The notes beneath the pieces were generated by a model that saw only the letters and a list, made by a program, of their open reading frames with translations, ran no database searches and was not told the origin of the DNA. Made by a program: the position numbers and the translations under genes. 64,000 nucleotides of DNA from Patescibacteria group bacterium. Its GTDB lineage: Bacteria > Patescibacteriota > Patescibacteriia > JBAZBY01. Location of the stretch: contig JBAZBY010000001.1 of NCBI GenBank assembly GCA_041671225.1, forward strand, positions 174,940-238,939, read 5' to 3'. Below, piece after piece: positions 1,568-64,000 of this stretch (its first letter is position 1; every line of letters starts with the position of its first letter).

Positions 1568-1601
1568 CCCAAACAGACCCCTGGTGTAAAGGGGGGGGTG
1601 T

Positions 1602-1637
1602 GGGAGGGGTCCGTGCGGGTTGGCATGGACCCCTCCC
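1602..1637 (-). terminator. Perfect 11-bp inverted repeat (GGGAGGGGTCC..GGACCCCTCCC) just downstream of the lipoprotein gene; likely terminator and island boundary
   Basis: Stem-loop visible directly in the sequence next to a G8 run. There is no clean U-tract. It sits at the GC-content transition. Confidence 0.4.
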
Positions 1638-1654
1638 TGGTGAAGAAACGGGCG

Positions 1655-2569
1655 CTACGAGCCGCCCATCTCGTTGATCGCCTGCGCGTAGAAGGCGTGG
1701 AGGAAATGGATGTCCGTCTTCATCGCCGCGTCAGGATCCGTGATGCGATCCTCAATGGCCAGCATGTTGGCGTCCACCGTGAGCTGGGTGAGCATCGCAT
1801 TCATGTTGTTCAGATCCATGGTGCCAAGCAGCGTGTTGATGAGCTGCACATCACCCGGCACCTCGCCGAGGATGTATGAGGTGGGATCCTGCCCGTCCTC
1901 TTTGGCAACGCGCTTGCGTGCCGCGATGCTCTCCTGAACGAGCGTCAACCATCCACCCTTCGTGTACTCGTTGAGGACGCGGCTGGTGATGGAGTGGGCA
2001 CGGTACTCGCCGTAGAGCCATTCCGGTGTCAGCGGTTCGCTCAACGGCTCATTGCCGGAAAGCCAGTCCGCTGCGTGCACCAGCTCGTGCGCGAAGTACA
2101 AACCCTTCACCAGCGGGCTGAAGCGCGTCTCATGCAACAGCATCCGGCTGCTATCCATATCAAACGACACCGCGACGTATGTCTCATTGGCGCCGTGTTC
2201 CCGGGGTTGGGGCTCGGCGACAATGAAGAAGGGCGTGCTGGACGTGGGCACCTCCATCACCGAGAACGTCTGGTTGTCGATGAAGTGAGCCTTCATGGCG
2301 TTCTGCTGATAGAATTCCAGCAGGCCCTTTGCCGTAGGGCTCTTGGTTGCGAGCTGCGCCAGCGCGTCCTCCATGGACGTGATGATACGCAGCTCCTCGG
2401 ATGTGATGGACGTGGAGGTGTCCGGTTCCACCGGGCCGGCCTTCTGGAGCTCGCTCAAGATATTGTCGGACAGGGGCTGCGCCTTGGCAGTGGTGTCCGC
2501 CTTATGGCAGCCGACGAAACAGGCGGCGACGAACAGCGCGAGAACGAGAATCGTGCGCGGGAGTTTCAC
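1655..2569 (-). CDS. Hypothetical lipoprotein with HExxH (FAHELVHAADW) zinc-metallopeptidase-like motif; high-GC gene
   Basis: 304-aa ORF with N-terminal signal peptide and lipobox (LALFVAACFVGC). GTG start at 2569 preceded by AGGAGGG at 7 nt. HELVH motif present. GC clearly higher than neighbouring groESL. Confidence 0.65.
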   Translation of the reverse strand: MKLPRTILVLALFVAACFVGCHKADTTAKAQPLSDNILSELQKAGPVEPDTSTSITSEELRIITSMEDALAQLATKSPTAKGLLEFYQQNAMKAHFIDNQTFSVMEVPTSSTPFFIVAEPQPREHGANETYVAVSFDMDSSRMLLHETRFSPLVKGLYFAHELVHAADWLSGNEPLSEPLTPEWLYGEYRAHSITSRVLNEYTKGGWLTLVQESIAARKRVAKEDGQDPTSYILGEVPGDVQLINTLLGTMDLNNMNAMLTQLTVDANMLAIEDRITDPDAAMKTDIHFLHAFYAQAINEMGGS

Positions 2570-2699
2570 GGGAATGCCCTCCTGTGGGTATGTGAAGGTG
2601 CAGCGCTCGCAACTGCAACCTTCAGAAATGAATGCAGGATGGTTGTTATGCGAGACTAGCCACCCTAATGCAAAATTGCCTTTTTGTCAATAGAAAGGC

Positions 2700-2728
2700 T
2701 TGTCAAGAAGCCCGGGGGATGCTATAAG
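2700..2728 (+). promoter_or_regulatory. Promoter of the GNAT gene (TTGTCA-17-TATAAG)
   Basis: TTGTCA at 2700-2705, 17-nt spacer, TATAAG at 2723-2728. GGAGGG Shine-Dalgarno precedes the ATG at 2790. Confidence 0.5.
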
Positions 2729-2789
2729 TGCTTCAACCACACTCGGTGGTTGGTCTTTTAGGATCTTTCATGCACAGGAGGGTACACGC

Positions 2790-3320
2790 ATGATTGAGCA
2801 CGCTCCGGAAGCACCAGTTGTACTGGATTACACCGCATTCGCGGAGTTTGCCCGCAGCAACGGCTGCGGCGTCACGCTGCTGGGCGACCTTATCGTGGAG
2901 GTCTTTGGCCTCAAGGATGTGCCGGGCACCTGCCGGGCAATCCGCCAGAAGATCCACCGGGGTCACCGCTACCTCGTAAGTGTCTCGCCGGAGGGTCGGC
3001 CTACGGGCTATGCCAGCTGGCATCCGCACATCACCCGTCGGGAGAACTTCTGCATGGAAGTCGCCGAAATCGGCGTGCATCCGGACTTCCGGAACGCGGG
3101 CCTCGGCGCTTTGCTCCTCCAAGCGGCGGAAAACGAAGCGCTCGCCCAAGCGAAGGCAGACGGTAAAGGCAAACCCATCGTGGTCTACGCCTACGTCCGT
3201 GAGGACAACCCCGATGCTCTGCGCTTCTGGAAGAGGCATGGCTTCGCCATCGCAGGGACGGAACCCTTCCCGCTCATTCCTGAGGTCAACATCAGTATGT
3301 GCGTCAAGACGCTCTTCTAG
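2790..3320 (+). CDS. GNAT-family N-acetyltransferase (high-GC)
   Basis: Motif A-like EIGVHPDFRNAGLGALLLQAAE and C-terminal RFWKRHGF. Start chosen at the internal ATG (2790) with an SD; the track ORF begins at 2700. Confidence 0.75.
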   Translation: MIEHAPEAPVVLDYTAFAEFARSNGCGVTLLGDLIVEVFGLKDVPGTCRAIRQKIHRGHRYLVSVSPEGRPTGYASWHPHITRRENFCMEVAEIGVHPDFRNAGLGALLLQAAENEALAQAKADGKGKPIVVYAYVREDNPDALRFWKRHGFAIAGTEPFPLIPEVNISMCVKTLF

Positions 3321-3384
3321 GCATCGCCGCCTACATGTTTTCCTTAACCCGGGGGTCGTCCACGACGATCTCCGGCTTCCCTTT

Positions 3385-4338
3385 TTATTCCACAAACTCC
3401 CGCAAGCGCGAAAGATGCCGCTCACGGAATTCATCTCTGCGATCCGTCTCGTGAAACTTCAATATCGTATCAGAAATAACAACGGCACTTCCCTCTTCTT
3501 GTGAACGGGATTGCGTGTTTTGGTCAAAACGCTGCATCTGCTGCTTCTGTGCATGTGCCTCAAGCACATGGCCAAACCACGTCTTGCCAAAAAGTTTTTC
3601 CAGCAAGCGCTTCTTCAACGTCATAAGGCCCCCGAGCTCCATAAGCCGAACGCGCTTATCTTCTGTGAACGCATTGGGCAGGTGATGCTTCACCCAACGG
3701 TTCGCAAAATAAAAAAGTTCCAGTGTTTGATGGTCGCTGTAGAGCGGCGTGAGCCATTCATGCCAATACGTGAGATATGGGTCTTCACCGGGAATCTTCA
3801 AATGCTCAAGTGAAAGCTGTTTATCGCTGATGTAAAAAGAGAGACAGGCACGGTCTTGCACATGGATACCATGCCGACGAAGATGAAAAAGGTCGAGGAT
3901 CATCGTAATGAACCAGCGCGCGAGAAACATGCGTCCATGCTCAATAACAATAAAGAGGTCAATGTCACTGTCCTCTTTCGCGTTGTGGTAACTCACCGTG
4001 TTCACCACGGCAACCATGCGCACGAATGGCAGCCACGAAATAAGCCTCGTGGCTTTTTCCGCGATCATCCACTTGGGCGAGGTAACCGCAAAACGATGAC
4101 GGCGGGTCGCGACGATATCTTCTCTTCCCCGAACATGCCAGAACACATCGGTCTTCACGATATGTGGCGCAAGTGTACCGCTCATCAGCACGCGTTCAAT
4201 ATCCTGCACGGTAGCATCCTGCTGCAACGGCTCCCGCACATATAAAAAACGGCTAATTTCCCGCGGTGTGAGCGGGTAACTTACCACATCAAACCATGCG
4301 ATGGTGTTCACAATTGCCTGTTCAAGTGGGGTTCTCAT
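3385..4338 (-). CDS. Hypothetical protein with minimal nucleotidyltransferase-like motif (VSYHNAKEDSDIDLFIV) and a possible Rx4H (HEPN-like) motif
   Basis: 317-aa ORF of backbone GC. A GS..DxD-like segment resembles Pol-beta superfamily NTases; RWVKHH occurs later. Assignment is tentative. Confidence 0.5.
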   Translation of the reverse strand: MRTPLEQAIVNTIAWFDVVSYPLTPREISRFLYVREPLQQDATVQDIERVLMSGTLAPHIVKTDVFWHVRGREDIVATRRHRFAVTSPKWMIAEKATRLISWLPFVRMVAVVNTVSYHNAKEDSDIDLFIVIEHGRMFLARWFITMILDLFHLRRHGIHVQDRACLSFYISDKQLSLEHLKIPGEDPYLTYWHEWLTPLYSDHQTLELFYFANRWVKHHLPNAFTEDKRVRLMELGGLMTLKKRLLEKLFGKTWFGHVLEAHAQKQQMQRFDQNTQSRSQEEGSAVVISDTILKFHETDRRDEFRERHLSRLREFVE

Positions 4339-4443
4339 AGCACGTTACTGTAGCAGGAGTGTGCAAAACAGGGCAAGTGTTTTACCCTTCGAGACCCTTC
4401 AACTTGTCACTCCGCTCCTCGCTCAGGACACCTCAGCGTGACA

Positions 4444-7407
4444 TCACTTCATCAGCGGCTTCAAATACTGCCCGGTATAGCTTTCCTTCACCTTCGCAAT
4501 ATCACGCGGGGTGCCCTTTGCAACCACGGTTCCGCCAGCATTGCCGCCCTCTGGACCCATGTCGATGATCCAATCTGCGGACTTAATCACGTCCAAGTTG
4601 TGCTCAATAATGAGCAGCGTGTTGCCTTTATCTACGAGCTGATTGATGACATGCAACAAACGCTTCACATCATCAAAGTGCAAACCAGTGGTGGGTTCAT
4701 CCAATATATAGAGCGTCTTGCCGGTTGCGCGGCGGGAGAGTTCCGTTGCCAGCTTCACGCGCTGCGCCTCACCGCCAGAAAGCGTCGTTGCGGATTGGCC
4801 AAGATGGATATACCCAAGACCAACATCGTTCAGTGTTTTAAGTTTTTGCTTGACCGGAGGAATGTGCGAAAAAAAATGCAATGCTTCTTCTACGGTCATG
4901 TCCAAAACATCAGCGATGGTCTTCCCTTTATAATGGATCTCCAAGGCCTGCGGGTTATAGCGTCGGCCCTTGCACTCCTCGCATTCCACATACACATCGG
5001 GCAAGAAGTGCATCTCGATCTTCACGAGGCCATCGCCTTCACAGGTTTCACAGCGTCCGCCTTTGACGTTAAAGGAGAAGCGCCCGGGGCCATAGCCGCG
5101 CATCTTCGCTTCCGGCACCCGCGCGAACAGATCCCGGATATACGTGAACACGCCGGTGTACGTTGCCGGATTTGAACGCGGCGTGCGCCCTATGGGAGAC
5201 TGATCGATCGTGATGACTTTATCAAGATGTTCCAATCCTTTAATTTCTTCGTGCTTGCCTGGCGCGTCTTTTGCGTTATGAAAGTGCTGCGCGAGCGCCT
5301 TCGCAAGGATGTCGGTCATGAGTGTTGATTTTCCGGAACCGGAAACGCCGGTGATGCAGTTAAAAAGGCCGAGCGGAATATCCACGTCTACTTTTTTAAG
5401 ATTGAACTCTTCCGCACCTTTGATGGTAAGCATCTTGCCATTCCCCTTGCGGTACTGCTTGGGCGTTGGAATGGATTTTCTGCCAGAAAGATACTGTCCG
5501 GTGATGGAATCCTTCACCTTTGCAATTTCCTCCGCAGTGCCCTGCGCCACAACGCAGCCGCCGTGTTCCCCAGCACCAGGGCCGATATCAATAACCTGAT
5601 CAGCGGCATGCATGGTATTTTCATCATGCTCAACCACCAACACCGTGTTGCCGAGGTCCCGGAGATTCTCAAGCGTCTTGATGAGCTTGTCGTTATCGCG
5701 CTGGTGCAGGCCGATGGACGGTTCATCAAGAATATACACAACGCCCACAAGCGAGGAGCCGATCTGCGTGGCCAAACGGATACGCTGCGCTTCCCCGCCG
5801 GCAAGCGTGGAGGCGGTACGATCCAGCGTCAGATAATCCAAACCGACGTTGTGCAAAAATTCCAGGCGCGCGCGGATCTCCTTCAAAATCTGCTCGGCGA
5901 TCTTGTGTTCTGTCTTCGTCAGTTTTTTCTCACCCTTACCTTCAGAGAGTTCTGCGAAGAAAACGCGTGCATTATCAATGCTGAAGTTGGCAACATCCGC
6001 AATATTCTTGCCCGCAACGGTCACGCCCAGCGCTTCTGGCTTGAGGCGTCGTCCTGCGCAGGTCGGGCACGGCTTCACGCGCATATAGCGCTCGATCTCC
6101 GCGCGGACGTAATCTGATTCCGTTTCATTATAGCGACGGAGAAGATTGGGAAGCACGCCTTCATACTTTGCCGTGTAATCGCCGGAAAATCGCTCACCGT
6201 CCATCGACATGGTGTATTCATTCTCAGATCCGTTCAGCACGATATCCAACTGCGCCTTGGTGTACTCCTTCACGGGGGTATTCAAATCAAAACCCTCAGA
6301 CGCGCCAACCGCTTCCAGCATCCGCATATACCACGATTGGTTTGAAGAAGAACGGCTCCAGGGACGGATGGCGCCTTCTGCAATAGTGAGCTTCCTATTG
6401 GGAATCACTAATGCATCATCCACCTCGAGCTTGGTGCCAATTCCCGTACAGTCAGGGCATGCTCCATGCGGCGTATTAAAAGAAAAATTGCGGGGCTCGA
6501 TATCCTCCAATGAAACACCATCAACCGGGCAAGAAAACTTCTCAGAAAAAAGATGGTCTTTCTTGTTGTCTGTCTCGGTGATGATAACGAGGCCGTCGCC
6601 ATAATCCAACGCGGTCTCAAGTGAATCAATAATGCGCGGCTTGTCGTTCTCGCTCTTTTCCTGATCGTCCACACCGATAGTGACGCGGTCAACCACTACT
6701 TCAATATTGTGCTTCCGCTTTTTGTCGAGCTCCTTATCGAGCGCTTCCTCGATGGAAATGATATCTTCATCAATGCGCACGCGCACATAACCGGCCTTTT
6801 GCGCTTCTTCCAAGAGCTTGCGATGCTCCCCTTTTTTGTCCCGGATCATTGGAGACAAAATGGCGACGCGCGTTTTTGCGGGAAGCTTCAAGATATGCCC
6901 AGCCATCTGCTGGACGCTCTGTTTTTCTACTGACCGACCGCACACGGGGCAATGCGGCGTGCCAACGCGTGCAAATAACAGACGGAGATAATCATAAATC
7001 TCCGTGACCGTGCCCACTGTTGAACGCGGGTTATGTGAAGTGGACTTCTGGTCGATGGAAATAGCCGGGGAAAGCCCGTCGATCTGGTCCACGTCCGGCT
7101 TGTCCATGAGACCCAAAAACTGCCGCGCGTATGCGGAGAGCGATTCTACATATCGACGCTGGCCTTCTGCATAAATGGTGTCGAAGGCGAGCGAAGACTT
7201 GCCGGAACCGGAAAGGCCGGTAAGCACCACCAATTTATCCCGCGGAATATCAATGTTGATGTTCTTCAGATTGTGTACGCGCGCACCGCGAACCGAGATC
7301 ACGTTTGCGGGGGCCACGCCCGCAACGCCATGCAAACCCGGCTTGCGTAGCGGGCGGGTGGCCAGGGCATTTTTATGAGAAGATGGGGAAATTTTTTTCT
7401 TTGACAT
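4444..7407 (-). CDS. uvrA: Excinuclease ABC subunit A
   Basis: 987 aa with tandem ABC ATPase signatures ([36 protein letters not shown]; [10 protein letters not shown]) and zinc-finger Cys clusters. Confidence 0.97.
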
Positions 7408-7584
7408 CAGATTTTATATACTCCACCAAAGGCGGATTGCCTTAAAAAATAGTAGGTGGGCAAAAAGGCCGAACCAGTCTATCACGCGTGTCAAGATGCG
7501 TCAATGCGTAAGGCACGGAAAGGGAAGTTCGGGCGGCATCTCGCAGGAGACGCCGCCCGAAGGAACTTGGCCAGAACGGACATA

Positions 7585-7707
7585 TCACGCCGACGGCATG
7601 TCGTTTTCCATCCGTCGACGCTCCGCCAGACACATGAGTCGCAGGGCAAGTGCCGACAGCAGCATGCCAAGGGCAATGCCGATGAGCTCACAGGTCTCTT
7701 TGTTCAT
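7585..7707 (-). CDS. Small hydrophobic peptide (40 aa, MNKETCELIGIALGMLLSALALRLMCLAERRRMENDMPSA), below the ORF-track length cutoff
   Basis: ATG preceded by GAGGAGGTAGT (strong SD), 28 nt downstream of the stop of the 7735-8252 gene, with a single predicted TM helix. High GC. Confidence 0.3.
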   Translation of the reverse strand: MNKETCELIGIALGMLLSALALRLMCLAERRRMENDMPSA

Positions 7708-7734
7708 ACTACCTCCTCACGTGATCTCGAGGCT

Positions 7735-8252
7735 CTACGCCTTGACGTGCTCAGGGAGCGCGAAGACGGTGACCACCCCTACGGCATCCACCGCGCACTC
7801 GTGCGTGATGGGGTGTTTGCCCACCTGGTGAGCCCCCATGAGGGTCACCGCCGAGGTGAACGCTGCATCGTCGCCGCTGTCGGTGACGATGTAGCCCAGG
7901 CCGGTGAGCCCGCTGATGAGGCTCAGGGCCTGCTCGAGGTTCTCCGGCGGAAGTCCCACGGGAACGCCACCCTGCTCGAAGTGTACGAAGATCTGCGGAT
8001 AGGAACCGCAAGCGGTATCATGATCGTTGCGCCACGCCTCCGTCACCGCATACCCGCTGTGCAGAAGCTGGCTGATCACCTGGGAAATCCCCAGGCCGTA
8101 CACCGGCTCGTTCCTCTGGAGGCTCGGCCGCTCCTGAGGCGACTTGGCTGAGGTGTGCGTGTGCTTGGGAAGCAAAGCGAAGAGACCCGGCGGGACAGCC
8201 CCCATTGAGGCGAACAGAGCGCGCAGGTCCACGGACACGGGGAGTTGAGGCA
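7735..8252 (-). CDS. Hypothetical protein (172 aa, high-GC); possible Cys/His hydrolase but no confident family
   Basis: ORF 7735-8274; start chosen at MPQLPV (8252) with AAGGAGGG upstream. The antisense ORF 7456-8151 is rejected as a high-GC artefact. Confidence 0.5.
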
Positions 8253-8363
8253 TAAAGCCCTCCTTCTGTCGCACGCGTGCGACGGCTGTTCTGGCAACTT
8301 GGGGAAGAACGATTGAACTACACTCTCCTTACCGGATATCCCTCATGGTGTCAATAAGCGCGC

Positions 8364-8407
8364 TATACCCAGAACCGCTTTTGTATGAATAAGTGGCGCT
8401 GGGTATA
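8364..8407 (+). promoter_or_regulatory. uvrC promoter (TTGTAT-17-TATACT, leaderless geometry) bracketed by the palindrome TATACCCAG-N26-CTGGGTATA
   Basis: TATACT ends 6 nt before the uvrC ATG (8416). A perfect 9-bp inverted repeat spans the -35/-10 region, making it a candidate repressor operator. Confidence 0.45.
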
Positions 8408-8415
8408 CTGCACGT

Positions 8416-10194
8416 ATGGAAATCCTCCAGAAAGACCATAAAACTCTGCCCACCACCCCCGGCGTCTACCTAATGAAGGATGACAAACAGAAAATCCTCT
8501 ACGTGGGCAAGGCGATCAACCTCCGGTCGCGCATTTCTTCATATTTCCAAAAACGCGCAAGCCTTGATCCAGCAAAGGCGATGATGGTGGGTCTCGTGAA
8601 GTACATTGAAGTGATGCTTGTATCAACAGAACAAGAAGCCTTGCTCCTAGAGGCAACGTTGATAAAAAAATATCTGCCGCCATACAACGTGGTGATGCGG
8701 GACGACAAATACTACCTATACATCGCGATCGACGAGCGCGAGGAATTCCCCACGCTTCAAGAAGTACGGCGGCTGCCAAAGCACCGCATGACGGTCTATG
8801 GCCCATATGCTTCTGCTGGCGTGGTGCACCAAACACTGAAGCTGCTCAAGAATATCTTTGGCTACCGCACCTGCGAGCCGAACCAAAGCAAGGCCTGTTT
8901 TGATTATCACCTTGGGCGCTGCCGCGGCGTCTGCATCGGAAAGATCACCCCCGCGCAGTACCGCGCAGAAGTGATTCAGCCCATCAAGCGTTTTCTCTCC
9001 GGCAGGCTCTCATGGATAGAAAAGAAATTGGAAAACGACATGGCGGAGGCGGCGCACGCAAAAGAATACGAGCGTGCAGGGATGCTCCGCGACCAGCTTC
9101 ACTCCGTGCAAAAGCTTACCTCCCGCCAGGTCGCCGTGAGCGCGCAGCATATTGACGTTGATGTACTCTCGCTCGCACGTGATAAATACTGGACGGTGCT
9201 GCATCTCTTCCGCGTCCGTGAGGGCAAGATGATCGATCAAAAAGCGTTTCTCCTGAAAAACCCGGCAGAAACAGCAAGTGAAGAGATCTTTGCCGCATTC
9301 ATGGAACAATATTATGCCGGCACCGCAGACCGCCCGAAGCGCGTGCTCATGCCTGTGCTGCCAGCGAGCGCAAAAGAACTTGAAAAACTCCTTGGCATGA
9401 AGCTTACCTCTCCGCGACGCGGTGCGCTCAAACGCTTACTTGAGCAAGGCACGCTCAATGCAGACGCAGAACTTGCCCGTCGCAAATTGAACTGGGCTGG
9501 CGATGCAGAAAAGGCGCGCAAGGCGCTTGAAGAGATCTCCCGCGCGCTGAAGCTCGTCAAGCATCCCAAGCGCATTGAGACATATGATATCTCCAACAAC
9601 CAGGGGGCGCACCCCGTGGGTTCAATGATCGTCTTTGAGGACGGGCAGGCGAAGAAGGACGCATACAAAAAATTCACCATCAAAACCATCAAGGGCCCGA
9701 ACGACCCGCACATGATGGCGGAGATGCTGAGGAGACGACTCCAGCATCTTCCTGCACACGATTCCAATGCGCCGTGGCCTGCGCCGGACCTCATCATTCT
9801 TGACGGCGGCAAGAGCCAACTCGGCGTGGTGGGACCGGTCATAAAAAAACTCGCACCAAATATCCCATACGTCGGCCTCGCAAAAAAAGAAGAGGAATTG
9901 ATCGTGCCGGGACGAAGGGGAAGCATCCGCCTGCCAGAAACAAGCGAGGGGCTGTATCTCCTGCAGCGCATGCGCGATGAAGCGCATCGCTTTGCCATCA
10001 CCTTTTACCGCGGCAAGCACCGCAAGGCTGAAGAAAGGAGCATATTGGATGACATTCCCGGCATCGGGCCAAAACTCAAGAAGGGATTGCTGTTGGCGTT
10101 CGGGTCAGTGGATGGCATTCGCAAGGCGAGTTTTGCAGAGCGCGTGCGGGTTGTTGGCAAGGCAAAAGCAGAACTGCTGGAAAAGCATCTATAA
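8416..10194 (+). CDS. uvrC: Excinuclease ABC subunit C
   Basis: N-terminal GIY-YIG motif (GVYLMKDDKQKILYVGKAINLRSR), UvrBC-interaction region, and C-terminal RNaseH-like/HhH region. Confidence 0.95.
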   Translation: MEILQKDHKTLPTTPGVYLMKDDKQKILYVGKAINLRSRISSYFQKRASLDPAKAMMVGLVKYIEVMLVSTEQEALLLEATLIKKYLPPYNVVMRDDKYYLYIAIDEREEFPTLQEVRRLPKHRMTVYGPYASAGVVHQTLKLLKNIFGYRTCEPNQSKACFDYHLGRCRGVCIGKITPAQYRAEVIQPIKRFLSGRLSWIEKKLENDMAEAAHAKEYERAGMLRDQLHSVQKLTSRQVAVSAQHIDVDVLSLARDKYWTVLHLFRVREGKMIDQKAFLLKNPAETASEEIFAAFMEQYYAGTADRPKRVLMPVLPASAKELEKLLGMKLTSPRRGALKRLLEQGTLNADAELARRKLNWAGDAEKARKALEEISRALKLVKHPKRIETYDISNNQGAHPVGSMIVFEDGQAKKDAYKKFTIKTIKGPNDPHMMAEMLRRRLQHLPAHDSNAPWPAPDLIILDGGKSQLGVVGPVIKKLAPNIPYVGLAKKEEELIVPGRRGSIRLPETSEGLYLLQRMRDEAHRFAITFYRGKHRKAEERSILDDIPGIGPKLKKGLLLAFGSVDGIRKASFAERVRVVGKAKAELLEKHL

Positions 10195-10199
10195 AAAAT

Positions 10200-10235
10200 G
10201 GACGACAGCGCGGGGGAAGGATTGCGCTGTCGTCC
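10200..10235. terminator. Bidirectional terminator hairpin (12-bp perfect stem GGACGACAGCGC/GCGCTGTCGTCC) between convergent uvrC and the 10302-10889 gene
   Basis: Perfect stem; A6 run immediately upstream on plus strand, which gives a U-tract on the minus strand. Confidence 0.6.
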
Positions 10236-10301
10236 GGGGAACACCGCGGGCTTTCCGCGGAATTCATTGCGGGCTGGCCAGTGACGGCCAAGGGACAAGA
10301 A

Positions 10302-10889
10302 TCACATCTGGCACGTGGTGTCCGCGTCCTCCGCCCAGCCGAACCACGTCGTTCCCCTGTCGTCCTCAATGGGGATGAGCTCGGGGAATGCCTCTTCCTG
10401 AGGTCTGGGGATGATGAGGCTATCCACAACCGGAACGCTAAAGTACGTTCTAGTGGCGCGGTCGAGAAGAGTGACCCTCCTCATGTTGAGGCCCTGAGCA
10501 ACCTCAATGACCTGAAACGGCCTCTTGGGCAGGAGGATCCAGAACACCTCCCTTTCCCCATTTGCGTCGTGGTCATGGCAGAGCATGGGACGCTCCACAT
10601 CCCACGGTCGAACGCAAACGAGCGAATCAGGGATAACCGACGAGTGCATCTCCTCGCCCAGAGCCAGGTGGTACGTCCCACTTGGGACGCCATGCTCCCT
10701 GAACTCCTGGATGATGACGTAGTCCTCCCCGAACGGAAGTTCGCTCCCGGGCCGGCTGGGCCCGAACGAGCTCTGCCCGTCCATGATGGAACCACCCCGA
10801 GGATTGAAGGCCTGCGCCCCGATGAGGCACAGGACGATGGCCACGAGAGACAAGGTGCCTACGTGCGACTGCAAACGTGACTTTCTCAA
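10302..10889 (-). CDS. Hypothetical secreted protein (195 aa, high-GC)
   Basis: N-terminal signal peptide (LSLVAIVLCLIGAQA); no recognisable domain. The GC-rich codon composition contrasts with uvrC and secG. Confidence 0.55.
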   Translation of the reverse strand: MRKSRLQSHVGTLSLVAIVLCLIGAQAFNPRGGSIMDGQSSFGPSRPGSELPFGEDYVIIQEFREHGVPSGTYHLALGEEMHSSVIPDSLVCVRPWDVERPMLCHDHDANGEREVFWILLPKRPFQVIEVAQGLNMRRVTLLDRATRTYFSVPVVDSLIIPRPQEEAFPELIPIEDDRGTTWFGWAEDADTTCQM

Positions 10890-57014: not shown

Positions 57015-57105
57015 AGGGCTTGTATCTTGACATGCTGGCGTGCGTCTGTAAATGTTGCGGTAGATTCACCCGATCTTTCCACCCTGCGAGCTGGAGGGCT
57101 CTGCA

Positions 57106-57372
57106 ATGCGCTACTGTCCATCATGTCAGCAGCCGCTCCCGGAAAGCGGCACATGCCAGACCCTAAAATGCCAACAGGCCACAGCCCTTGGCAAGGGTCA
57201 ATGCTCTCTTTGCGACTCCGCACTCCACGAAGGCCACTGTCCCGCATGCGAACACGTATCGGCAGTAACAACGTCGCGCGTGTGCGCCACACACCACGTC
57301 CAGCTCGCGCCGGACGGAACCTGCCCCCACTGCGAAGGGGTCTGCCTCAGCGCACTGCTGGGGACAGCCTGA
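57106..57372 (+). CDS. Cys-rich small protein (88 aa; 12 Cys as 4 CxxC pairs plus others): double zinc-ribbon-like, high-GC
   Basis: MRYCPSCQ...CSLC...CPAC...CPHC; GGAGGG SD 7 nt upstream; divergent from holA. Confidence 0.55.
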   Translation: MRYCPSCQQPLPESGTCQTLKCQQATALGKGQCSLCDSALHEGHCPACEHVSAVTTSRVCATHHVQLAPDGTCPHCEGVCLSALLGTA

Positions 57373-57377
57373 AAGGA

Positions 57378-57635
57378 ATGACGATGGATTCTTTGCTCTT
57401 CTACCGCGGACGGCTTCTGTGCATCGAAGTGGACGAAAGTGGCATGCCGGAAGCGATCCCAATGGGATTCAACCCCGGTCAGCGCCTCCTCCGGCGTCGG
57501 AGGGCATCACGGCACCTCAAACCCTCTCGACTCGAGGAAGGACTCGCCATATCCACATTGGATGAGGAAACAACCGGACTCCTGGATCTCGCAGAAGGTC
57601 CGCCGATTGCTACGCCTCCTCCTCGCATGAAGTGA
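57378..57635 (+). CDS. Hypothetical protein (85 aa) immediately downstream of the Cys-rich gene; same high-GC cassette
   Basis: AAAGGAA SD; Arg-rich centre (LLRRRRASRHLKPSR) and Pro-rich end; the cassette terminator follows. Confidence 0.4.
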   Translation: MTMDSLLFYRGRLLCIEVDESGMPEAIPMGFNPGQRLLRRRRASRHLKPSRLEEGLAISTLDEETTGLLDLAEGPPIATPPPRMK

Positions 57636-57665
57636 CAGATCACAACCTCGTTCTCTCCGCACTCC

Positions 57666-57710
57666 GCGCCGACCCCTGGGCTTCTCCCTTGGGTCGGCGC
57701 TTCTTTTAAT
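57666..57710 (+). terminator. Rho-independent terminator of the Cys-rich cassette (10-bp stem GCGCCGACCC/GGGTCGGCGC plus TTCTTTTAATCCTCTTCTTT)
   Basis: Perfect inverted repeat followed by a T-rich tract. Confidence 0.65.
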
Positions 57711-57765
57711 CCTCTTCTTTACTGAAAATGATGATCCGCCGAAGTCTACACTGTGAATAAACAGA

Positions 57766-60495
57766 TTACAGTGGGCTCATCTCACCCCAATTCTTCCCCA
57801 CCTCTGCATCCACAATGATCGGCACAGGGAGCTTCATCGCCTTCTCCATTTTTTCTTCAACAAAAGCCGCGACCTTCTTCACATCACCTTCTGGCACTTC
57901 AAGAACAAGTTCGTCATGCACCTGCAAAATCATGCGCGCCTTCTGAGAAACATTATGAAGCTCTGCATACACATCCACCATCGCCTTCTTCATGAGATCC
58001 GCAGCCGTACCCTGGAGCGGCATATTCACCGCCATGCGCTCTGCGGCGGAGCGGAGCATGCCATTGGAACTATCAATTTCCGGCAACGGCCTGCGACGCC
58101 CAAAAAGCGTCTCTGCATACTTGTTCCGCTTCGCGAATCGTTTTGCATCCTCCAGCCACTTTGCAAGCCCCGTGTACACGGCAAAGTACTGCTCAATGAA
58201 ATCCCGCGCCTCATTCAGCGGAATACCCGCGCCCTTTGCGAGGCCGAACATTCCCTGTCCATAGAGCACGCCGAAGTTCACCGCCTTGGCAGCATAGCGC
58301 TGCTCTTTTGTGACCTCATCAAGCGGAACGTTCCACACGCGCGCTGCGGTTGCCGCATGAATATCTTCGCCCTTCTTAAAACTTTCCAACATCGCTGCAT
58401 CCTGAGAAACCGCGGCCGCAAGACGCAATTCAATTTGTGAATAATCACAAGAAAGAAGGCGCATACCTTGCGGAGCAATAAAGGCATTACGAATCTCACG
58501 CCCAAGTTCCGTGCGCACCGGAATATTCTGCAAGTTTGGATTCTGGGAAGAAAGCCGCCCCGTTGCTGCCACGACCTGATTATAACTGGTGTGAATGCGT
58601 TTTGTTCGTTTGTGCACCAACTCGGGCAAGGCATCAAGATACGTGGAAACGAGCTTTGAAAGCTCCCGAAACTCCATGATCATATCAATGATCGGGTGCT
58701 TGCCTTGAAGCTTTTCAAGTTCACTTGCTCGCGTCGAAATGCCGGTCTTTGTATGCCCTAAACCGCTGATAGGAATCTGCATCTTTTGAAAAAGCACTTC
58801 CTGAAGCTGTGACGGCGAATTGATATTGAATTCCACGCCTGCTGCCGTATAAATATCCTGCTCAATCGCCTTGAGGCGCTTTGTGTGTTTTGCGGAGAGT
58901 TTTTTTAAAAAAGTTACATCAACATCCACACCGTTCCGTTCCATATGCGCAAGAACCAGAATCAGCGGCATTTCTATCTCATGAAAAAGTTTCATGAGTC
59001 CTTTTTCTTCCAGTTGCGGCGCGAACTTCTGATACAAACGGAAGGTGTAATCCGCATCTTCCGCCGCATACGGTCCAACCTTCTCAAGTGGCACATCTAG
59101 CATCGTGAGCTGATCCTTCCCCTTCTTGCCGATCAGATCTTCTATCGGTTGCATCTCATATCCGAATTCGCCGAAGACAAGAGTATCCAGCTTGTGCGAC
59201 CGCGAACCGGGATTCAAAAGATATGAAGCGACCATGGTATCAAACGCAACGCCTTTCATGCTGCTGCAGTATCCGTACAGCACTTTAATATCAAACTTGA
59301 GGTTATGTCCGACCTTTTGGATTCGCTCATTCTCAAAAAATGCTTGCAATAATTTAAGCCAATTCGGGTGCTTACGCACGTGCACAAAATATGCTTCCCC
59401 GGCCTTCCATGCGAGGCTAATGCCGATAAGGTCTGCATCGATCGTTTCAAGGCTGTCTGTTTCGGTATCAATCGCCACGACCTTCTGCTTCATGAGCTCG
59501 CCATACATCTTCTGGAACGTTGCATCATCATCGACAAGAATGTAGTTGTGCGTGCCCGTACCCGGCTTTGCGCGCGGTGTCGCTGCTATTGCCGCTGCGT
59601 CACCGTTTGAACCGGGAAGCTGGCCAACCAAACTGCGGAACTCAAGCTCTTGCAAAAGGCTCACTACCTTCGCGCGGTCATATTCTGCAAGCTCCGCATC
59701 CTGCAGCGTGAAATCGATCTTCATGTCCGTAATGATCGTCGCGAGTTTGTATGACTCGAATGCATCCTTCTTGGAGTCAAGAAGCAGGCGCTGAACGCGC
59801 TCGGGGAACGATGCAAATTTTTTTGATTTTTTCTCAAGTGCATCATACATCTTCTCCACTGTGCCAAATGCGGCAAGCAGCTCCGTTGCTGTTTTATCAC
59901 CAATACCTTTTACGCCCGGAATGTTATCTGAGCTATCACCCTTGAGCGCCTTATAATCAATGACCTGCTCAGGCTTAAAACCATATTTTTCAATGAACGC
60001 CTTGCCATCCATCACGGATGACTCCGTTGGGTGGCGACGTGCTTTAAAGATCGTGATCTTGGGATCAATCAACTGAAATGCATCCATGTCCGATGTGACG
60101 ATAACCGTCTCGTCTGCAAGATGTCTCTTTGCTATCGTGCCGATGATGTCATCTGCCTCAAAGCCCTTCTGTTCAAGAATAGGAATATTGAGTGCCTCCA
60201 CAAGTTCGCGTACGCGAGGGATCTGCTCAAACATATCGTCTGGCATCTTCTCGCGCGTGGATTTGTAATCCGCTGAAATAGCATCACGGAACGTCTCTCC
60301 CTCCACATCAAACGCCACCATAAGATACTGCGGTTTCAGTTCACGAATGACGCGGAACAGGATAGCGGCAAAACCATACACCGCATTCACCTGCTCGCCT
60401 TTTTTTGTGGTGAGCGGCGGAATAGCGTGGAATGCCTGATACATCAGGGCATGGCCGTCGATGATCGCAAGACGGGTCTTGGTTTTTTTTGCCAT
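57766..60495 (-). CDS. polA: DNA polymerase I (5'-3' exonuclease plus 3'-5' exo-like plus polymerase domains)
   Basis: N-terminal MAKKTKTRLAIIDGHALMYQAFHA (FEN motif) and polymerase motifs (RRAAKAVNFGVLYG, VHDELVLE). Start at 60495. Confidence 0.96.
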   Translation of the reverse strand: MAKKTKTRLAIIDGHALMYQAFHAIPPLTTKKGEQVNAVYGFAAILFRVIRELKPQYLMVAFDVEGETFRDAISADYKSTREKMPDDMFEQIPRVRELVEALNIPILEQKGFEADDIIGTIAKRHLADETVIVTSDMDAFQLIDPKITIFKARRHPTESSVMDGKAFIEKYGFKPEQVIDYKALKGDSSDNIPGVKGIGDKTATELLAAFGTVEKMYDALEKKSKKFASFPERVQRLLLDSKKDAFESYKLATIITDMKIDFTLQDAELAEYDRAKVVSLLQELEFRSLVGQLPGSNGDAAAIAATPRAKPGTGTHNYILVDDDATFQKMYGELMKQKVVAIDTETDSLETIDADLIGISLAWKAGEAYFVHVRKHPNWLKLLQAFFENERIQKVGHNLKFDIKVLYGYCSSMKGVAFDTMVASYLLNPGSRSHKLDTLVFGEFGYEMQPIEDLIGKKGKDQLTMLDVPLEKVGPYAAEDADYTFRLYQKFAPQLEEKGLMKLFHEIEMPLILVLAHMERNGVDVDVTFLKKLSAKHTKRLKAIEQDIYTAAGVEFNINSPSQLQEVLFQKMQIPISGLGHTKTGISTRASELEKLQGKHPIIDMIMEFRELSKLVSTYLDALPELVHKRTKRIHTSYNQVVAATGRLSSQNPNLQNIPVRTELGREIRNAFIAPQGMRLLSCDYSQIELRLAAAVSQDAAMLESFKKGEDIHAATAARVWNVPLDEVTKEQRYAAKAVNFGVLYGQGMFGLAKGAGIPLNEARDFIEQYFAVYTGLAKWLEDAKRFAKRNKYAETLFGRRRPLPEIDSSNGMLRSAAERMAVNMPLQGTAADLMKKAMVDVYAELHNVSQKARMILQVHDELVLEVPEGDVKKVAAFVEEKMEKAMKLPVPIIVDAEVGKNWGEMSPL

Positions 60496-60532: not shown

Positions 60533-62629
60533 CTATGCGGAGATGTTGCGCGCTCCGCGGCGGTGCAGCACAAAAAAGACGCCGCCGATGGCGAGCATGA
60601 GCGCGGAAAGCACCAATGCGAGCATGGTCGTTGGTTTAATGGTAAAGGGCTCCTCTGCATGGAGTTCTGTTGTCGTTGCGGCAACGGGTGCCGTCTCAGC
60701 AGGAGACGCCTCATCAGTTGCGGCAAGCACCGCGCCCTTCTGCTCTACGATGTCATCAATGCTGCGCGGAAGAAATTCGTCGTCCAGAAAGAATCCGGTC
60801 ACGGTGATGCCATCCCCGACAAGAAGCGACGCGAGATCGATCCCCGTGCCGCTCTTCACGCGCACGGCAATTGGCCCGGCATCTGTGGCGAGCGTCATGA
60901 GCGTCCGCTGCTTCTTCTCCACCGTACCGCTCACGGTCTCCACGACAGACTCAGACGCCACTGCGTCACTCACCTCAACGCCGCCATCCCGCCCGAGATT
61001 CACCTTCACGCCACTCTGGTCCATGCCGATGACGCCGCGAACGGTCACCACATCATCAAGCGCAAGCTCCGGGAAACGATCCGTGCTGGAGTACACGCGC
61101 ACCAATGCATCGCCCTCGGCAATGTACAGCGTGTGGCTTGCGATCTGGCCCGGCAAAGCAATCACCACGCCAGAAACGGCGACCTTCTCGTTACGGTCCA
61201 GAGATGCAAGGTCAGCAATGCGGCGTGAGGCAAAGCCGTCAGTCTCCGGCGTGATGGCAGCATCCTCCGTTTCCGCATCGATTTTCTCAGACTCCTCATT
61301 TTCTTCGCCGCTCCATTGCCAATGCGTGGATGCTCCATCGCGGAGAAATATCTGATCCTCCGGGGCCGTGCCGAACTCCACGCCGTTCACCTTCTTCCCG
61401 AAGGGATCAATGAGATGGACAACATCCCCGGTATTGTTGAGCATGATGCGGCTCTCTGTGCGCATGATGCGCAGCGTTGCGCCGGACTTCAGCGGGGTAC
61501 TTGCTGCGAGCGTGAACGTCCTACTTCCATCACTCACGGACCATCCATAAAGGTCCACGGTCTTTGCGGCGAAATTCGTTATCTCAACATACTCGCCGGC
61601 AGTATCATCCCCCGGCGGATTCGGAAGCACGGCCGTCAACAGAACATGCGCTGACGTCATCGGTTCTTGGTTTTGGGATTGGGGTGCGGAGTCTTTTGGT
61701 GTTTTGTCGCTTGGTGAGGTATTCGTATTGCTGTTCGTGTTATCAGGCGGAGTTTCGCCGGACGGCGTCTCTCCATCATCTTGCGTAACCGGCGCATTGT
61801 TTTGCACAAAAACCTGAAGCGTCTGCGTTGCAGATGCGCGACCATCACTCACGGTGCAGGAAAGCAAAAATTCGCCTTCTCGTGCGAAGGTCCGTACAAA
61901 CGTTGCTCCGGTGCCGGATGCAGAACCATCCACACTCCAGGAAATAGCCAGCACATCGTTATCCGCATCTGTGGCTTCTGCAGTAAAAGTTGCTGATGTG
62001 CCGACGATCACCTCATCCGGACCCACGCACGCCACATCCGGCGCTTGGTTGGAATTCTCTACCTTTGGCGTTGCAAAAAACCCTTCCACGTCCGCATTGG
62101 CGCTTGCTGTATGCCATGCCTCCGCCGTATCCCCCGGCAGGTCAACGCGATGCCTCTCCATGGATGCCCAATTGCTTCCGCTTGCATACTCACCGGCGAA
62201 CGGAATGCCGATGCCTTCATCCGCAACATCCACCACTGCTCCACCCGCATCGTATAAGTGAAGCAGGAGCTTGGAATTTACGAGCGAGACGGCAGGATCC
62301 ACCACATCCGGCTCCACCATAAGCGCGCTGTTTGCATCCCCGTTCGCATAATTCGCGATAAGGAAGAAGCCGTGCGCCGGAATGGTCTTTCCCGGCAATA
62401 CGAGCATCTCCGTCTCCACGTCGTTGGAGAGCTTGGTGATGCGCCAACCGGAAAGATCGATGTCACTGTCCGTTGTATTGAGGAGCTCTATCCATTCATC
62501 CTGCGCGCTCGCAGGTGAACCCATCCACAGGAGTTCATTGATAATGACGTGAGAAGTTGTTGCCTGCGCAGGCAAAATCCAGACCAATAAAAACACCATC
62601 GCCACGAGAACAAGAATACGTACGTACAT
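60533..62629 (-). CDS. Cell-surface protein with two lamin-tail domains (LTD), a PKD-like domain and a C-terminal TM anchor
   Basis: LTD motifs HVIINELLWMGS..EWIELLNTTDSDIDLSGWRI and VLLTAVLPNP..EYVEITNF..VDLYGWSVSDG; PKD-like VACVGPDEVIVGTSATFTAEATD; C-terminal hydrophobic helix plus HRRGAR. Confidence 0.8.
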   Translation of the reverse strand: MYVRILVLVAMVFLLVWILPAQATTSHVIINELLWMGSPASAQDEWIELLNTTDSDIDLSGWRITKLSNDVETEMLVLPGKTIPAHGFFLIANYANGDANSALMVEPDVVDPAVSLVNSKLLLHLYDAGGAVVDVADEGIGIPFAGEYASGSNWASMERHRVDLPGDTAEAWHTASANADVEGFFATPKVENSNQAPDVACVGPDEVIVGTSATFTAEATDADNDVLAISWSVDGSASGTGATFVRTFAREGEFLLSCTVSDGRASATQTLQVFVQNNAPVTQDDGETPSGETPPDNTNSNTNTSPSDKTPKDSAPQSQNQEPMTSAHVLLTAVLPNPPGDDTAGEYVEITNFAAKTVDLYGWSVSDGSRTFTLAASTPLKSGATLRIMRTESRIMLNNTGDVVHLIDPFGKKVNGVEFGTAPEDQIFLRDGASTHWQWSGEENEESEKIDAETEDAAITPETDGFASRRIADLASLDRNEKVAVSGVVIALPGQIASHTLYIAEGDALVRVYSSTDRFPELALDDVVTVRGVIGMDQSGVKVNLGRDGGVEVSDAVASESVVETVSGTVEKKQRTLMTLATDAGPIAVRVKSGTGIDLASLLVGDGITVTGFFLDDEFLPRSIDDIVEQKGAVLAATDEASPAETAPVAATTTELHAEEPFTIKPTTMLALVLSALMLAIGGVFFVLHRRGARNISA

Positions 62630-62700
62630 AAAACGATGGCCACCAGTGCCACCGTATGTTCCCCGTTTCGCCGGGAAGGGTCTCTCTTTATAAAGTTTTA

Positions 62701-62720
62701 GTGGCCCCCGAAAGGGCCAC
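62701..62720. other. GC hairpin GTGGCCC-CCGAAA-GGGCCAC between prs and the LTD gene (no clear U-tract)
   Basis: Perfect 7-bp stem read from the sequence. Confidence 0.3.
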
Positions 62721-62859
62721 CAAAACAGGTCTCTACAGGCCAGTATAAAAAAACACCCTCGCGGTGTCAAGGGGGGAGTGAAGGCAGGTCAAGAGGAGTA
62801 TTGGGGGCCCGCCAGAAATGGGGGCCCCGCAGGGGTATGAAGAAATGGCCACCGAGTCG

Positions 62860-63864
62860 CTAGGCGTTCAACGAACCGCACATCGCGAGGTAGGAATCCT
62901 CCTCGAACAGCGCCGAGATGGAATCCTCGTCACCGCGAATCGCCCGGATAGCAAGTGCAAGGAGCTTGGCGACGGTACAGACCTTGAACTTCTCAGGAAG
63001 TTCCTCCGGACGATGGAGATAGATGGTATCCGTCACCAGAATCTCGGTCAGTGCCGCACACTCGTCCAGACGCTTCACGGCATCGCCGATGAGCTTCGCA
63101 TGCGTGACAACGACACGCACAGACAGCGCGCCGCGCTCAATCAACGCTTCAGCAGCCTTGATCAGCGAGCTTCCCGTAGCCGACTCGTCCTCCACGATGA
63201 AGCAGTGCCTGCCCTTCGGATCTCCCAGAACGCCACTGCTCGTGAGCGTGTCGCCTTCCCGTGCCTTGTGCACGATGATGAGCGGCGCGTCAAGACGCTT
63301 GGAGTACGAATTGATGATCTTGCCGCCGCCGATGTCCGCAGACGCGACCGAAAGCATGGGGAGTCCACGATTCCGAATCTCGCCAAGGAACACCGGACGA
63401 ACGTAGAGGTGATCACAGCGCACTCCCGGGCCTGGGAAAGACTGCTCCTGGGCAGCGTGCAGATCGAGGAACACGAGACGGTCAACGCCAGCCGTTGCGG
63501 CGAGATCGATCATCAGTTTCGAGGTAACCGCGACGCGTGACGTGTCCTTGCGATCCATCCGTGTCCCGAGCAGGTACGGAATGACCGCAATGACGCTGCT
63601 CGCCGAAGCATCACGTGCCGCACGCGCGAGCATGAACAGCTCGCCAGCGTTATCCCAACTGGACTTCGGCGTCGCGTTCGTTGGTTGAATGAGTACCACA
63701 TCGCGACCACGGACATTGTCCTCGAGCCGTGCGTATGGCTCGTTGTCCTTGAACGGCCTTACGTTTGCCGCGCCAAGCGTAACGCCGAGGTACCGACACA
63801 CCTCTAACGCAAGTGGCCTGTTCGCAGTTCCCGTGAAGATGCGCAGATCTGCATGGTTTTTCAA
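62860..63864 (-). CDS. prs: Ribose-phosphate pyrophosphokinase (PRPP synthetase), high-GC
   Basis: MKNHADLRIFTGTANRPLALEV...NVRGRDVVLIQPT and the PRPP-binding loop. The high-GC stretch continues to the window end. Confidence 0.93.
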   Translation of the reverse strand: MKNHADLRIFTGTANRPLALEVCRYLGVTLGAANVRPFKDNEPYARLEDNVRGRDVVLIQPTNATPKSSWDNAGELFMLARAARDASASSVIAVIPYLLGTRMDRKDTSRVAVTSKLMIDLAATAGVDRLVFLDLHAAQEQSFPGPGVRCDHLYVRPVFLGEIRNRGLPMLSVASADIGGGKIINSYSKRLDAPLIIVHKAREGDTLTSSGVLGDPKGRHCFIVEDESATGSSLIKAAEALIERGALSVRVVVTHAKLIGDAVKRLDECAALTEILVTDTIYLHRPEELPEKFKVCTVAKLLALAIRAIRGDEDSISALFEEDSYLAMCGSLNA

Positions 63865-64000
63865 GAGCGTCCCTCCTATGGAAACGAAACACCGGTACTA
63901 GAGCGCCCCCACCTTAACAGATACGCATGCATCGTCAACCGCCGCACCAATCGGAATGGTGATGGGCAGAAAAAATTGACCAAAAAGAGAAGGGTCCGTA

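Follow-up and report, generated by a model that had tools for sequence, protein, structure and literature searches.

Why is the conserved gene backbone of a small bacterial genome interrupted by short patches of GC-rich DNA, most of them a single gene long? The question is raised by a 64,000-nucleotide stretch of a Patescibacteria group bacterium (contig JBAZBY010000001.1, positions 174,940–238,939; hereafter the window). An earlier note, made from the sequence alone, had read these patches as many independent gains from high-GC donors. The patches themselves are real, and all of those listed in that note are reproduced in GC profiles computed over 500 and 120 nucleotides. The mean GC of the window is 51.9%. 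Against a background of 0.42–0.55, the 500-nucleotide profile reaches 0.60–0.61 at 1.5–2.5 kb, 0.65 at 7.75–8.25 kb and 0.60 at 10.25–10.75 kb (patches 1–3), 0.66 at 45.5–46.25 kb and 0.57–0.61 at 49.0–51.5 kb (patches 4 and 5), 0.58–0.61 at 54.25–55.75 kb and 0.59 at 57.0–57.75 kb (patches 6 and 7), and 0.59–0.61 at 60.5–61.5 kb and 0.60–0.61 at 62.75–63.75 kb at the right end. Summed from the part coordinates, the GC-rich cargo makes up ∼16% of the window.

The same contrast is found gene by gene. In a gene set curated by family matches and by the rule that GC content falls from the third to the first to the second codon position (GC3 > GC1 > GC2), core genes have GC 0.46–0.54 and GC3 0.44–0.64, and the 11 accessory genes in the eight patches have GC 0.59–0.65 and GC3 0.67–0.83; GC2 is also elevated in most patch genes. 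The backbone is, therefore, about 46–54% GC, somewhat above the ∼45–50% first claimed. GC3 is heterogeneous among 50 genes (χ2 = 676, 49 degrees of freedom, p = 3e-111). Codon usage differs between patches and core (TTC 0.79 versus 0.41, GAG 0.74 versus 0.37), and lysine accounts for 2.8% of residues in patch proteins and 6.6% in core proteins. The atypical base composition and codon usage expected of laterally acquired genes are, thus, present in the patch genes. Tetranucleotide signatures also separate patches from core (r = 0.67, compared to 0.89 between patch halves and 0.97 between core halves). The GC3 distribution is not cleanly bimodal. It is broad and continuous, its upper tail is heavy, and a two-component mixture is only marginally better by the Bayesian information criterion; uvrC (0.64) and the gene for an LTD/PKD surface protein (0.63) lie between the two classes.

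The 120-nucleotide profile places the compositional steps, with at least 16 switches, at gene ends. An AT-rich dip marks the promoter side of the patch genes, and the 3′ flank is usually still GC-rich.

We compared the window with related loci of graded distance. A UvrB protein search identified relatives with 87%, 77%, 71% and 66% identity, and their contigs L169, L173, L170 and L171 were used for comparison; the UvrB tree is (L171,(L170,(L173,(window,L169)))). The relatives come from runs SRR22388171 (L169), SRR22387818 (L173) and ERR14788029 (L170), and a further locus, L087, from SRR22388305. UvrB is so conserved that 78 of 80 loci from a scan of genome contigs belonged to unrelated phyla; the useful ones were L007, from a Kerfeldbacteria metagenome-assembled genome (MAG; locus ∼44–46% GC), and L008, from a Patescibacteria single-amplified genome (44% GC). 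A UvrC scan of metagenome contigs, with a best identity of 44%, served for distant synteny alone. The close relatives cover ∼46.6–62.8 kb of the window, and patches 1–3 were compared with distant genomes alone. The hot-spot comparison took in the window, L169, L173, L170, L171, L008, L007, L110, L107, L112 and L094.

These comparisons show that the order of the backbone is shared across distant Patescibacteria and that the GC-rich genes sit in variable gaps. The gene order is rpoB-murligase-femAB-ruvA-uvrB-rpsT-holA-polA in L008 and uvrB-coaD-holA-polA in L007, and groESL-hyp317-uvrA-uvrC-secG-SBP5-rnj in the distant low-GC metagenome loci L110, L107, L112 and L089. Neither L008 nor L007 has homologues of the patch genes at the syntenic locus, and the four metagenome loci lack homologues of the genes of patches 1–3. 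The uvrA/uvrC gap measures 14 nucleotides in L110, ∼95 in L107 and 1008 in the window. All close relatives retain femAB-ruvA-[gap]-uvrB-coaD-rpsT-holA-[gap]-polA, and the gap content differs in each. The ruvA/uvrB gap holds four genes in the window, three in L169, one in L170, an FG-GAP protein in L171 and none in L008; beside uvrB, L173 has an unrelated GC-rich open reading frame (ORF) of 134 residues. Different content between the same flanking core genes, the mark of a core-genome hot spot, is thus seen at ruvA/uvrB, coaD/rpsT, holA/polA, uvrA/uvrC and the flank of tRNA-Arg. GC-rich gap cargo also occurs elsewhere, as a 60% GC gap gene in L173 (core 52%) and as two 62% GC genes in the holA/polA gap of L007 (17073–18310, in a ∼44% GC locus), so other genomes share the pattern.

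The history of the cargo differs from gene to gene. The lone purF-like gene of patch 6 is absent between coaD and rpsT in L169, L173, L170 and L171, and between coaD and holA in L007, and the rpsT promoter is conserved on its far side; it is demonstrably an insertion, gained relative to five relatives. The genes of patches 1–3 are likewise absent from the orthologous position, as judged against distant relatives alone. Other cargo is shared. The ruvA/uvrB gap of L169 contains an orthologue of the mannose-6-phosphate-isomerase-like (ManPiso-like) gene (72% amino-acid identity), a STAS protein (333 residues, 36% identical over 101 residues to that of the window) and an orthologue of the clade-specific orphan HG5d (83%). 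HG5d is also the sole gap gene of L170, at the same position (53%). An MTAP-like relative with 48% identity, in L087, likewise follows tRNA-Arg and is likewise GC-rich, and the LTD/PKD gene has a 49% identical orthologue beside polA in L170. Gene-sized, compositionally distinct accessory insertions in a syntenic backbone are therefore borne out, with the purF-like gene as the clearest gain; the claim that every patch is an independent recent gain is contradicted by the ManPiso-like gene, HG5d, a STAS gene and the tRNA-Arg/MTAP pair, which occupy the same positions in relatives.

The contrast between patches and core is largely made by a derived AT-ward shift of the core, a point missed by the earlier note; the closest relatives are GC-rich throughout. 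The relatives' loci have GC contents of 56.6%, 57.8% and 56.5%, with core GC3 of 0.60–0.77, and cargo and core of L169 are indistinguishable in composition. Third-position changes were polarised by parsimony with L170, a fairly distant outgroup. On the branch to the window, core third positions show 257 GC>AT versus 55 AT>GC changes (4.7:1), whereas those on the L169 branch are balanced (123 versus 135); the low GC of the core is, therefore, derived. The backbone has thus shifted strongly toward A+T at synonymous sites since its split from the sister lineage. A second test, which needs no outgroup, considers third positions that are G/C in the window and A/T in L169, or the reverse. In the core, the window has A/T at 548 such sites and G/C at 261, with a skew in every core gene, compared to 66 and 59 in the three shared cargo genes (Fisher p = 0.0016 versus core). 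The ManPiso-like gene, with 23 against 23, has no AT-ward asymmetry. The gap genes common to the window and its sister did not take part in the shift of the core.

HG5d provides the most detailed view of such shared cargo. Its identity to L169 by codon position (0.90/0.91/0.69) indicates that it is coding and under purifying selection. Its third-position identity is far above core values of 0.39–0.51, its four-fold-site identity is 0.69 (0.34–0.46 in most core genes), and its nucleotide identity is 80–88%, compared to ∼70–78% in the flanking core. In 36 blocks, each of 60 codons, the identity at third positions is correlated with GC3 of the window (r = 0.67, p = 9e-6); its correlation with GC3 of L169 is weak and non-significant (r = 0.27, p = 0.12). 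One segment of raised GC lies within a core gene: a tract of polA is 86–93% identical to L169, compared to 71–81% on both sides, with a GC of 0.55–0.59 in the window (0.47–0.49 nearby) and a third-position identity of 0.72–0.77. It could be a recombination tract, or the synonymous sites of the polymerase active-site region could be under unusual constraint. Introgression of the core from an AT-richer relative was considered and rejected, as the core proteins are consistently closest to those of the GC-rich L169.

We consider turnover of the gap cargo by lateral exchange, mostly within the GC-richer clade, to be the best explanation, with a probability of about one half (0.52). The gaps would be hot spots of gain, loss and replacement, and the cargo would pass laterally, mainly between those members of this poorly sampled clade that are richer in GC, perhaps also from other GC-rich donors. 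Having spent a shorter time under the new AT-ward pressure, it would retain the composition of its gene pool (∼60% GC, GC3 ∼0.7–0.8), and the mosaic would arise jointly from a core in drift and from accessory genes that are young and GC-rich. This is the simplest account because the gap content changes between all relatives, because the purF-like gene is a gain, because some GC-rich segments parted from those of the GC-rich sister more recently, and because the likely gene pool, the rest of the clade, is itself GC-rich. It also agrees with a survey which reports that most detectable transfers in Patescibacteria are intra-Patescibacteria (PMC12455944).

Several observations weigh against turnover. 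With the exception of polA, the GC boundaries end at gene ends without entering the flanking core genes, whereas flank-anchored replacement by homologous recombination would predict boundaries that enter them. The third-position identity of the ManPiso-like gene to L169 is 0.51, close to that of the core (0.39–0.49), yet the gene shows no AT-ward shift, so that its donor would have to be another, unsampled GC-rich relative. The tetranucleotides of the patches match clade relatives at 0.74–0.77 and unrelated high-GC genomes at ∼0.8, and a donor sequence was found for none of the patches. The comparison with close relatives is, moreover, limited to the right-hand 11 kb. Finally, the presence of HG5d in L169 and L170, and of the tRNA-Arg/MTAP pair in L087, gives these genes the look of old occupants of their gaps, and vertical inheritance with exemption from the drift suits them at least as well.

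Such an exemption in situ, in which the cargo was inherited vertically like the core and was spared the AT-ward shift, is the main alternative and, on balance, an unlikely one. Three routes are possible: a lower mutation rate in the cargo, for example through rare transcription; GC-biased gene conversion at frequently recombining gaps; or selection for codon adaptation or nutrient economy that pushes expressed core genes toward AT and leaves weakly expressed cargo untouched. Cargo common to the window and L169 in the same gap has balanced differences between G/C and A/T where every flanking core gene is skewed, and the ManPiso-like gene has diverged nearly as far as the core and is unshifted. 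HG5d is in place in both L169 and L170, and its third-position changes are fewer on both branches (10–11% versus 17–19%), as in a gene with a low rate. The tRNA-Arg/MTAP pair is also present in a relative with a tRNA at the same distance as the L170 and L171 tRNAs, and the GC boundaries coincide with ends of transcription units whose promoters stay AT-rich. Exemption, however, does not account for the purF-like gene, which is absent from its site in five relatives and hence a gain, and the different gap content of every relative examined implies a short average residence. Codon pairs of the C>T and G>A types shift alike in the core, a pattern that simple transcription-associated deamination would not be expected to give. 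Core GC3 also has no relation to expected expression (groEL 0.58 and efp 0.57, compared to 0.44 for both ftsK and a helix-turn-helix gene), and the 62% GC cargo in the 44% GC locus of L007 makes retention of an ancestral GC content seem unlikely.

Turnover may also be set beside a more general, and in our judgement doubtful, proposal that two gene classes have different compositional equilibria, the gap cargo having long been held GC-rich or shielded while the core drifts AT-ward. Possible routes are GC-biased gene conversion at the gaps, or transcription- or replication-linked mutation that spares rarely expressed genes. That Patescibacteria may share such a feature generally is hinted at by the GC-rich orphan cargo in gaps of L173 and of the 44% GC Kerfeldbacteria genome.

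We regard many independent, recent and not yet ameliorated gains from unrelated high-GC donors, such as an actinobacterial host of an epibiont, as improbable. In their favour, the patches depart strongly from the norm in composition and codon usage and are coherent among themselves, their genes lie in gaps of a conserved backbone, the insertion of the purF-like gene is specific to this lineage, and patch tetranucleotides correlate at ∼0.8 with several unrelated high-GC genomes. The L007 cargo could also be taken in this sense, since one of its genes encodes a protein of 216 residues that carries a signal peptide and ends in a C-terminal Phe; by eye, it resembles an outer-membrane-type β-barrel and would be odd, or foreign, in a monoderm belonging to the candidate phyla radiation (CPR). 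The closest homologues expected in a foreign lineage were, however, not found. The purF-like protein has no non-self relative above 36% identity among 5.8 billion clustered proteins, the best matches (35–36%) being spread over many phyla; the MTAP-like protein has just two non-self relatives in the same set (48% and 29%); and for prs an exhaustive reading of 1.84 billion representatives gave a best non-self identity of 43%. The good homologues of the GC-rich genes are confined to the same CPR clade and the same positions. As recent transfer from a sampled phylum should leave far closer matches, the idea of a host donor is unsupported, and an older transfer fares no better, since later divergence would overwrite synonymous sites and the GC3 of the donor could not persist. 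Tetranucleotide matching does not discriminate among donors, as many unrelated high-GC loci and the clade relative L170 all score 0.77–0.80; actinobacterial (Collinsella) loci give the weakest match (0.47–0.52). Much of the contrast, in addition, stems from the derived fall in core GC. The best purF-like match examined and the 29% MTAP match were also considered as donors and rejected, as they belong to ordinary non-CPR bacteria (a pur operon and a spore-former's methionine-salvage cluster, respectively). Host-to-epibiont transfer is known for Saccharibacteria living on Actinobacteria, a case that resembles the present one in its CPR recipient and in its nucleotide-salvage and surface-type cargo. 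Here, by contrast, there are no actinobacterial-like best matches, and the organism groups with Kerfeldbacteria-like and unclassified Patescibacteria, not with anything named Saccharibacteria.

A chimera of assembly or binning that joins organisms of ∼50% and ∼60% GC is suggested by the compositional alternation alone and is very unlikely, to the point of being effectively excluded: there are at least 16 switches exactly at gene ends, three assemblies have the same junctions, and L169, another organism from a separate run, has orthologous cargo contiguous with both ruvA and uvrB. The NCBI MAG contig (1.03 Mb) carries identical proteins (purF-like WCV86_01160, MTAP-like WCV86_01105), and the ENA megahit contig (602 kb, ERZ27249449) and Logan contigs (SRR18595301) are 100% identical in DNA to the window across patches 2–8, with single Logan contigs covering patches 2–3 and patches 6–8; all three assemblies appear to derive from one read set (SRR18595301).

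As the earlier note had observed, integrases and transposases are missing from the flanks: no called gene of the window contains an integrase, recombinase or transposase Pfam domain. A search for direct repeats at all patches found no tRNA-derived or other convincing flanking repeat, and nothing beyond chance. A tRNA adjoins just one patch (patch 4), and the window, thus, lacks the edge integrase or recombinase and the tRNA with direct repeat of a classical integrase-mediated island. Searches with PHROGs matched generic acetyltransferase and cupin families alone, and tblastn against plasmids with six joined patch proteins returned nothing, so there is no sign of a phage or plasmid origin in these searches. 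Rfam, at the gathering threshold and at E-values up to 0.5, identified just two tRNAs in the window and no RNA family in the patches. GC-rich structured RNA genes were accordingly rejected as an explanation, given also the GC3 > GC1 > GC2 periodicity of the patch ORFs and the coding pattern of HG5d.

The genes that most bacteria acquire have a lower GC content than the core. Oliveira, Touchon and Rocha are said to have described, in 2017, a chromosomal organisation of horizontal gene transfer (HGT) in which genes are gained and lost at hot spots between conserved core genes. The gaps of the window resemble such spots, with the same flanking core pairs and different, small and often orphan cargo, usually without mobility genes; they differ in that the genome is just ∼1 Mb and the cargo consists mostly of single genes that are GC-richer than the core. 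Compositional amelioration of transferred genes was reportedly described by Lawrence and Ochman in 1997. As in amelioration, the less-resident genes here keep a foreign composition and codon usage, most of all at third codon positions; unlike in that scheme, the recipient is a moving target, and "atypical" genes may simply bear the older composition of the clade. A universal GC>AT mutation bias was reportedly found by Hershberg and Petrov and by Hildebrand et al., both in 2010. The 4.7:1 excess on one small-genome lineage is akin to the AT-ward drift of reduced, host-dependent genomes, whereas the present shift is modest (to ∼50% GC), recent (the sister is at equilibrium) and not shared by the accessory genes. 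The mosaic is a new instance of known processes, an ordinary genome mosaic, with a clean polarised shift and a split between core and cargo in a CPR lineage.

A survey of HGT in groundwater Patescibacteria reports that up to 13% of genome length derives from HGT and that 83% of detected transfers are intra-phylum, as single genes and small islands (PMC12455944, mSystems 2025). The cargo of the window is similar in that its close homologues are intra-clade alone. Transfers in the survey were found via donor–recipient pairs, and its available passages mention neither a GC split between core and cargo nor a polarised shift of the core.

These results call for caution with composition-based HGT calls, as the atypical genes stand out mainly because the core has moved. 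The polarised and recent shift of this CPR lineage toward A+T, next to a sister at equilibrium, could help to trace what changed, such as repair genes or lifestyle. Tiny CPR genomes evidently keep defined turnover gaps between conserved core genes, and the nucleotide-salvage genes in these gaps (prs, purF-like and MTAP-like) decide what the cell must get from its host.

Table 1. Patches and associated features of the window, with composition and family matches (E, E-value).
Feature	Position	Strand	Content	GC	GC3	Matches
Patch 1a	1500–2569	−	Orphan, 304 residues (coding sequence 1655–2569); GC-rich 3′ flank (1500–1654)	0.607	0.83 (GC1 0.58, GC2 0.40)	None in Pfam, NCBIfam or PHROG
Patch 1b	2700–3320	+	GNAT acetyltransferase	0.60	0.71	Pfam Acetyltransf_1, E = 1.9e-13
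Patch 2	7408–8274	−	uvrA/uvrC gap; orphan, 179 residues (7735–8274)	0.646	0.82	None in Pfam, NCBIfam or PHROG
Patch 3	10195–10889	−	uvrC/secG gap; orphan, 195 residues (10302–10889), hydrophobic segment at N terminus	0.604	0.77	None in Pfam, NCBIfam or PHROG
Patch 4	45604–46431	−	Divergent MTAP-like nucleoside phosphorylase, 275 residues, directly downstream of tRNA-Arg(CCG)	0.64	0.80	NCBIfam TIGR01694 MTAP, E = 2.7e-21, 76 bits (family cutoff 275)
tRNA-Arg(CCG)	46601–46675	−	Anchors the variable region			ARAGORN and Rfam
Patch 5a	49156–49575	−	ruvA/uvrB gap; cupin/ManPiso-like, 139 residues		0.71	Pfam MannoseP_isomer, E = 2.4e-11
Patch 5b	49765–50602	−	Orphan, 147 residues (49765–50208); STAS-domain protein, 126 residues (50222–50602)		0.67 (orphan), 0.76 (STAS)	STAS, E = 4.8e-8
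Patch 5c	50824–51423	−	HG5d, clade-specific orphan, 199 residues, adjoins uvrB			
Patch 6	54186–55607	−	coaD/rpsT gap; lone divergent PurF-like glutamine amidophosphoribosyltransferase, 473 residues			GATase_6/7 and Pribosyltran; best PDB matches amidophosphoribosyltransferases, 181 bits
Patch 7	57015–57765	+	holA/polA spacer; ORF of 88 residues with four CxxC motifs (57106–57372, +)	0.59–0.67		Double zinc ribbon, weak (E = 0.0034, below cutoff)
polA tract	58003–58377	−	375 nucleotides in polA, raised GC, unusually high identity to L169			
LTD/PKD surface protein	60533–62629	−	698 residues, intermediate composition	0.568	0.63	LTD, E = 8.5e-28; PKD
Patch 8	62700–63864	−	Ribose-phosphate diphosphokinase prs, 334 residues (coding sequence 62860–63864); GC-rich 3′ flank	0.595	0.70	TIGR01251, 222 bits (cutoff 113)

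The individual patches (Table 1) differ in how much can be said of their genes. The orphan of patch 1a has a lipoprotein-like signal at its N terminus and an HELVH (HExxH) motif, and no homologue is present in the distant syntenic loci. An exact 12-nucleotide repeat, AAGGCTTGTCAA, lies on either side of this gene (1556–1567 and 2695–2706); it is within the chance range for GC-rich DNA, though placed exactly at the patch edges, and its second copy includes the −35 hexamer of the GNAT promoter. Both promoters quoted in the earlier note exist, TTGTCA-17-TATAAG at 2700–2728 for the GNAT gene and TTGACA upstream of the MTAP-like gene. The positions of promoter and ribosome-binding site suggest that the true start of the GNAT gene is likely ATG 2790, giving a protein of 176 residues. 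In patch 2, a further 327 nucleotides of GC-rich DNA (7408–7734) are without assigned content.

The MTAP-like protein has no match in Pfam, unlike in the NCBIfam and PDB searches; its closest PDB structures carry the name 5′-methylthioadenosine phosphorylase. Directly downstream of its gene, two small low-GC ORFs of 81 and 75 residues (GC 0.39 and 0.44; 44970–45442, − strand) meet the 64% GC of the MTAP-like gene in the sharpest compositional step of the window. The tRNA-Arg flank that holds the MTAP-like gene here shows a reverse mosaic in the ∼60% GC relative L171 (tRNA at 4733–4806), in which a 41% GC region (1–4430) encodes a protein of more than 2,000 residues and a small helix-turn-helix protein.

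An AlphaFold2 model of HG5d from the single sequence has a predicted local distance difference test score of 35. On the 3′ side of its gene lies a terminator formed by a perfect GC hairpin of 29 nucleotides (50783–50811, − strand; GGGGCCGTCCGGC-AAA-GCCGGACGGCCCC, followed by a T-rich run). The hairpin is 100% conserved in L169 (3407–3435), where the adjacent DNA is just ∼80% identical.

Patch 7 holds just the zinc-ribbon-like ORF of 88 residues and no convincing gene outside it. The same spacer of L169 contains, on the same strand, a different Cys-rich ORF (8268–8777) with no BLAST-detectable similarity to it. The spacer ORF looks like a fast-evolving small zinc-ribbon gene. In the LTD/PKD gene, the GC-rich part is the C-terminal third (60.5–61.3 kb), a rise that comes on top of the patches listed in the earlier note.

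Long antisense ORFs are present in the patches, as had been noted, and public annotations disagree on the strand. ENA ORF calls lie antisense to the GNAT (2733–3434, −), STAS (50177–50617, +) and prs (62818–63540, +) genes, and the ENA annotation lacks these three genes despite their family matches. The public call for patch 1a is also on the antisense strand, and for patches 2 and 3 (7456–8151, +; 10281–10880, +) the ENA and Logan annotations are on opposite strands. The ORFs with family matches or with GC3 > GC1 > GC2 periodicity are those on the strand opposite to the miscalled ORFs; public annotations of this genome, thus, put several GC-rich genes on the wrong strand.

Outside the patches, a stand-alone N6/N4 DNA methyltransferase of 400 residues (24279–25481, −) with a slightly raised GC of 0.544 lies between ychF and rpsF, with no restriction partner seen in its vicinity. 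In amino-acid content, cysteine is three times commoner in patch proteins than in core proteins (1.8% versus 0.6%).

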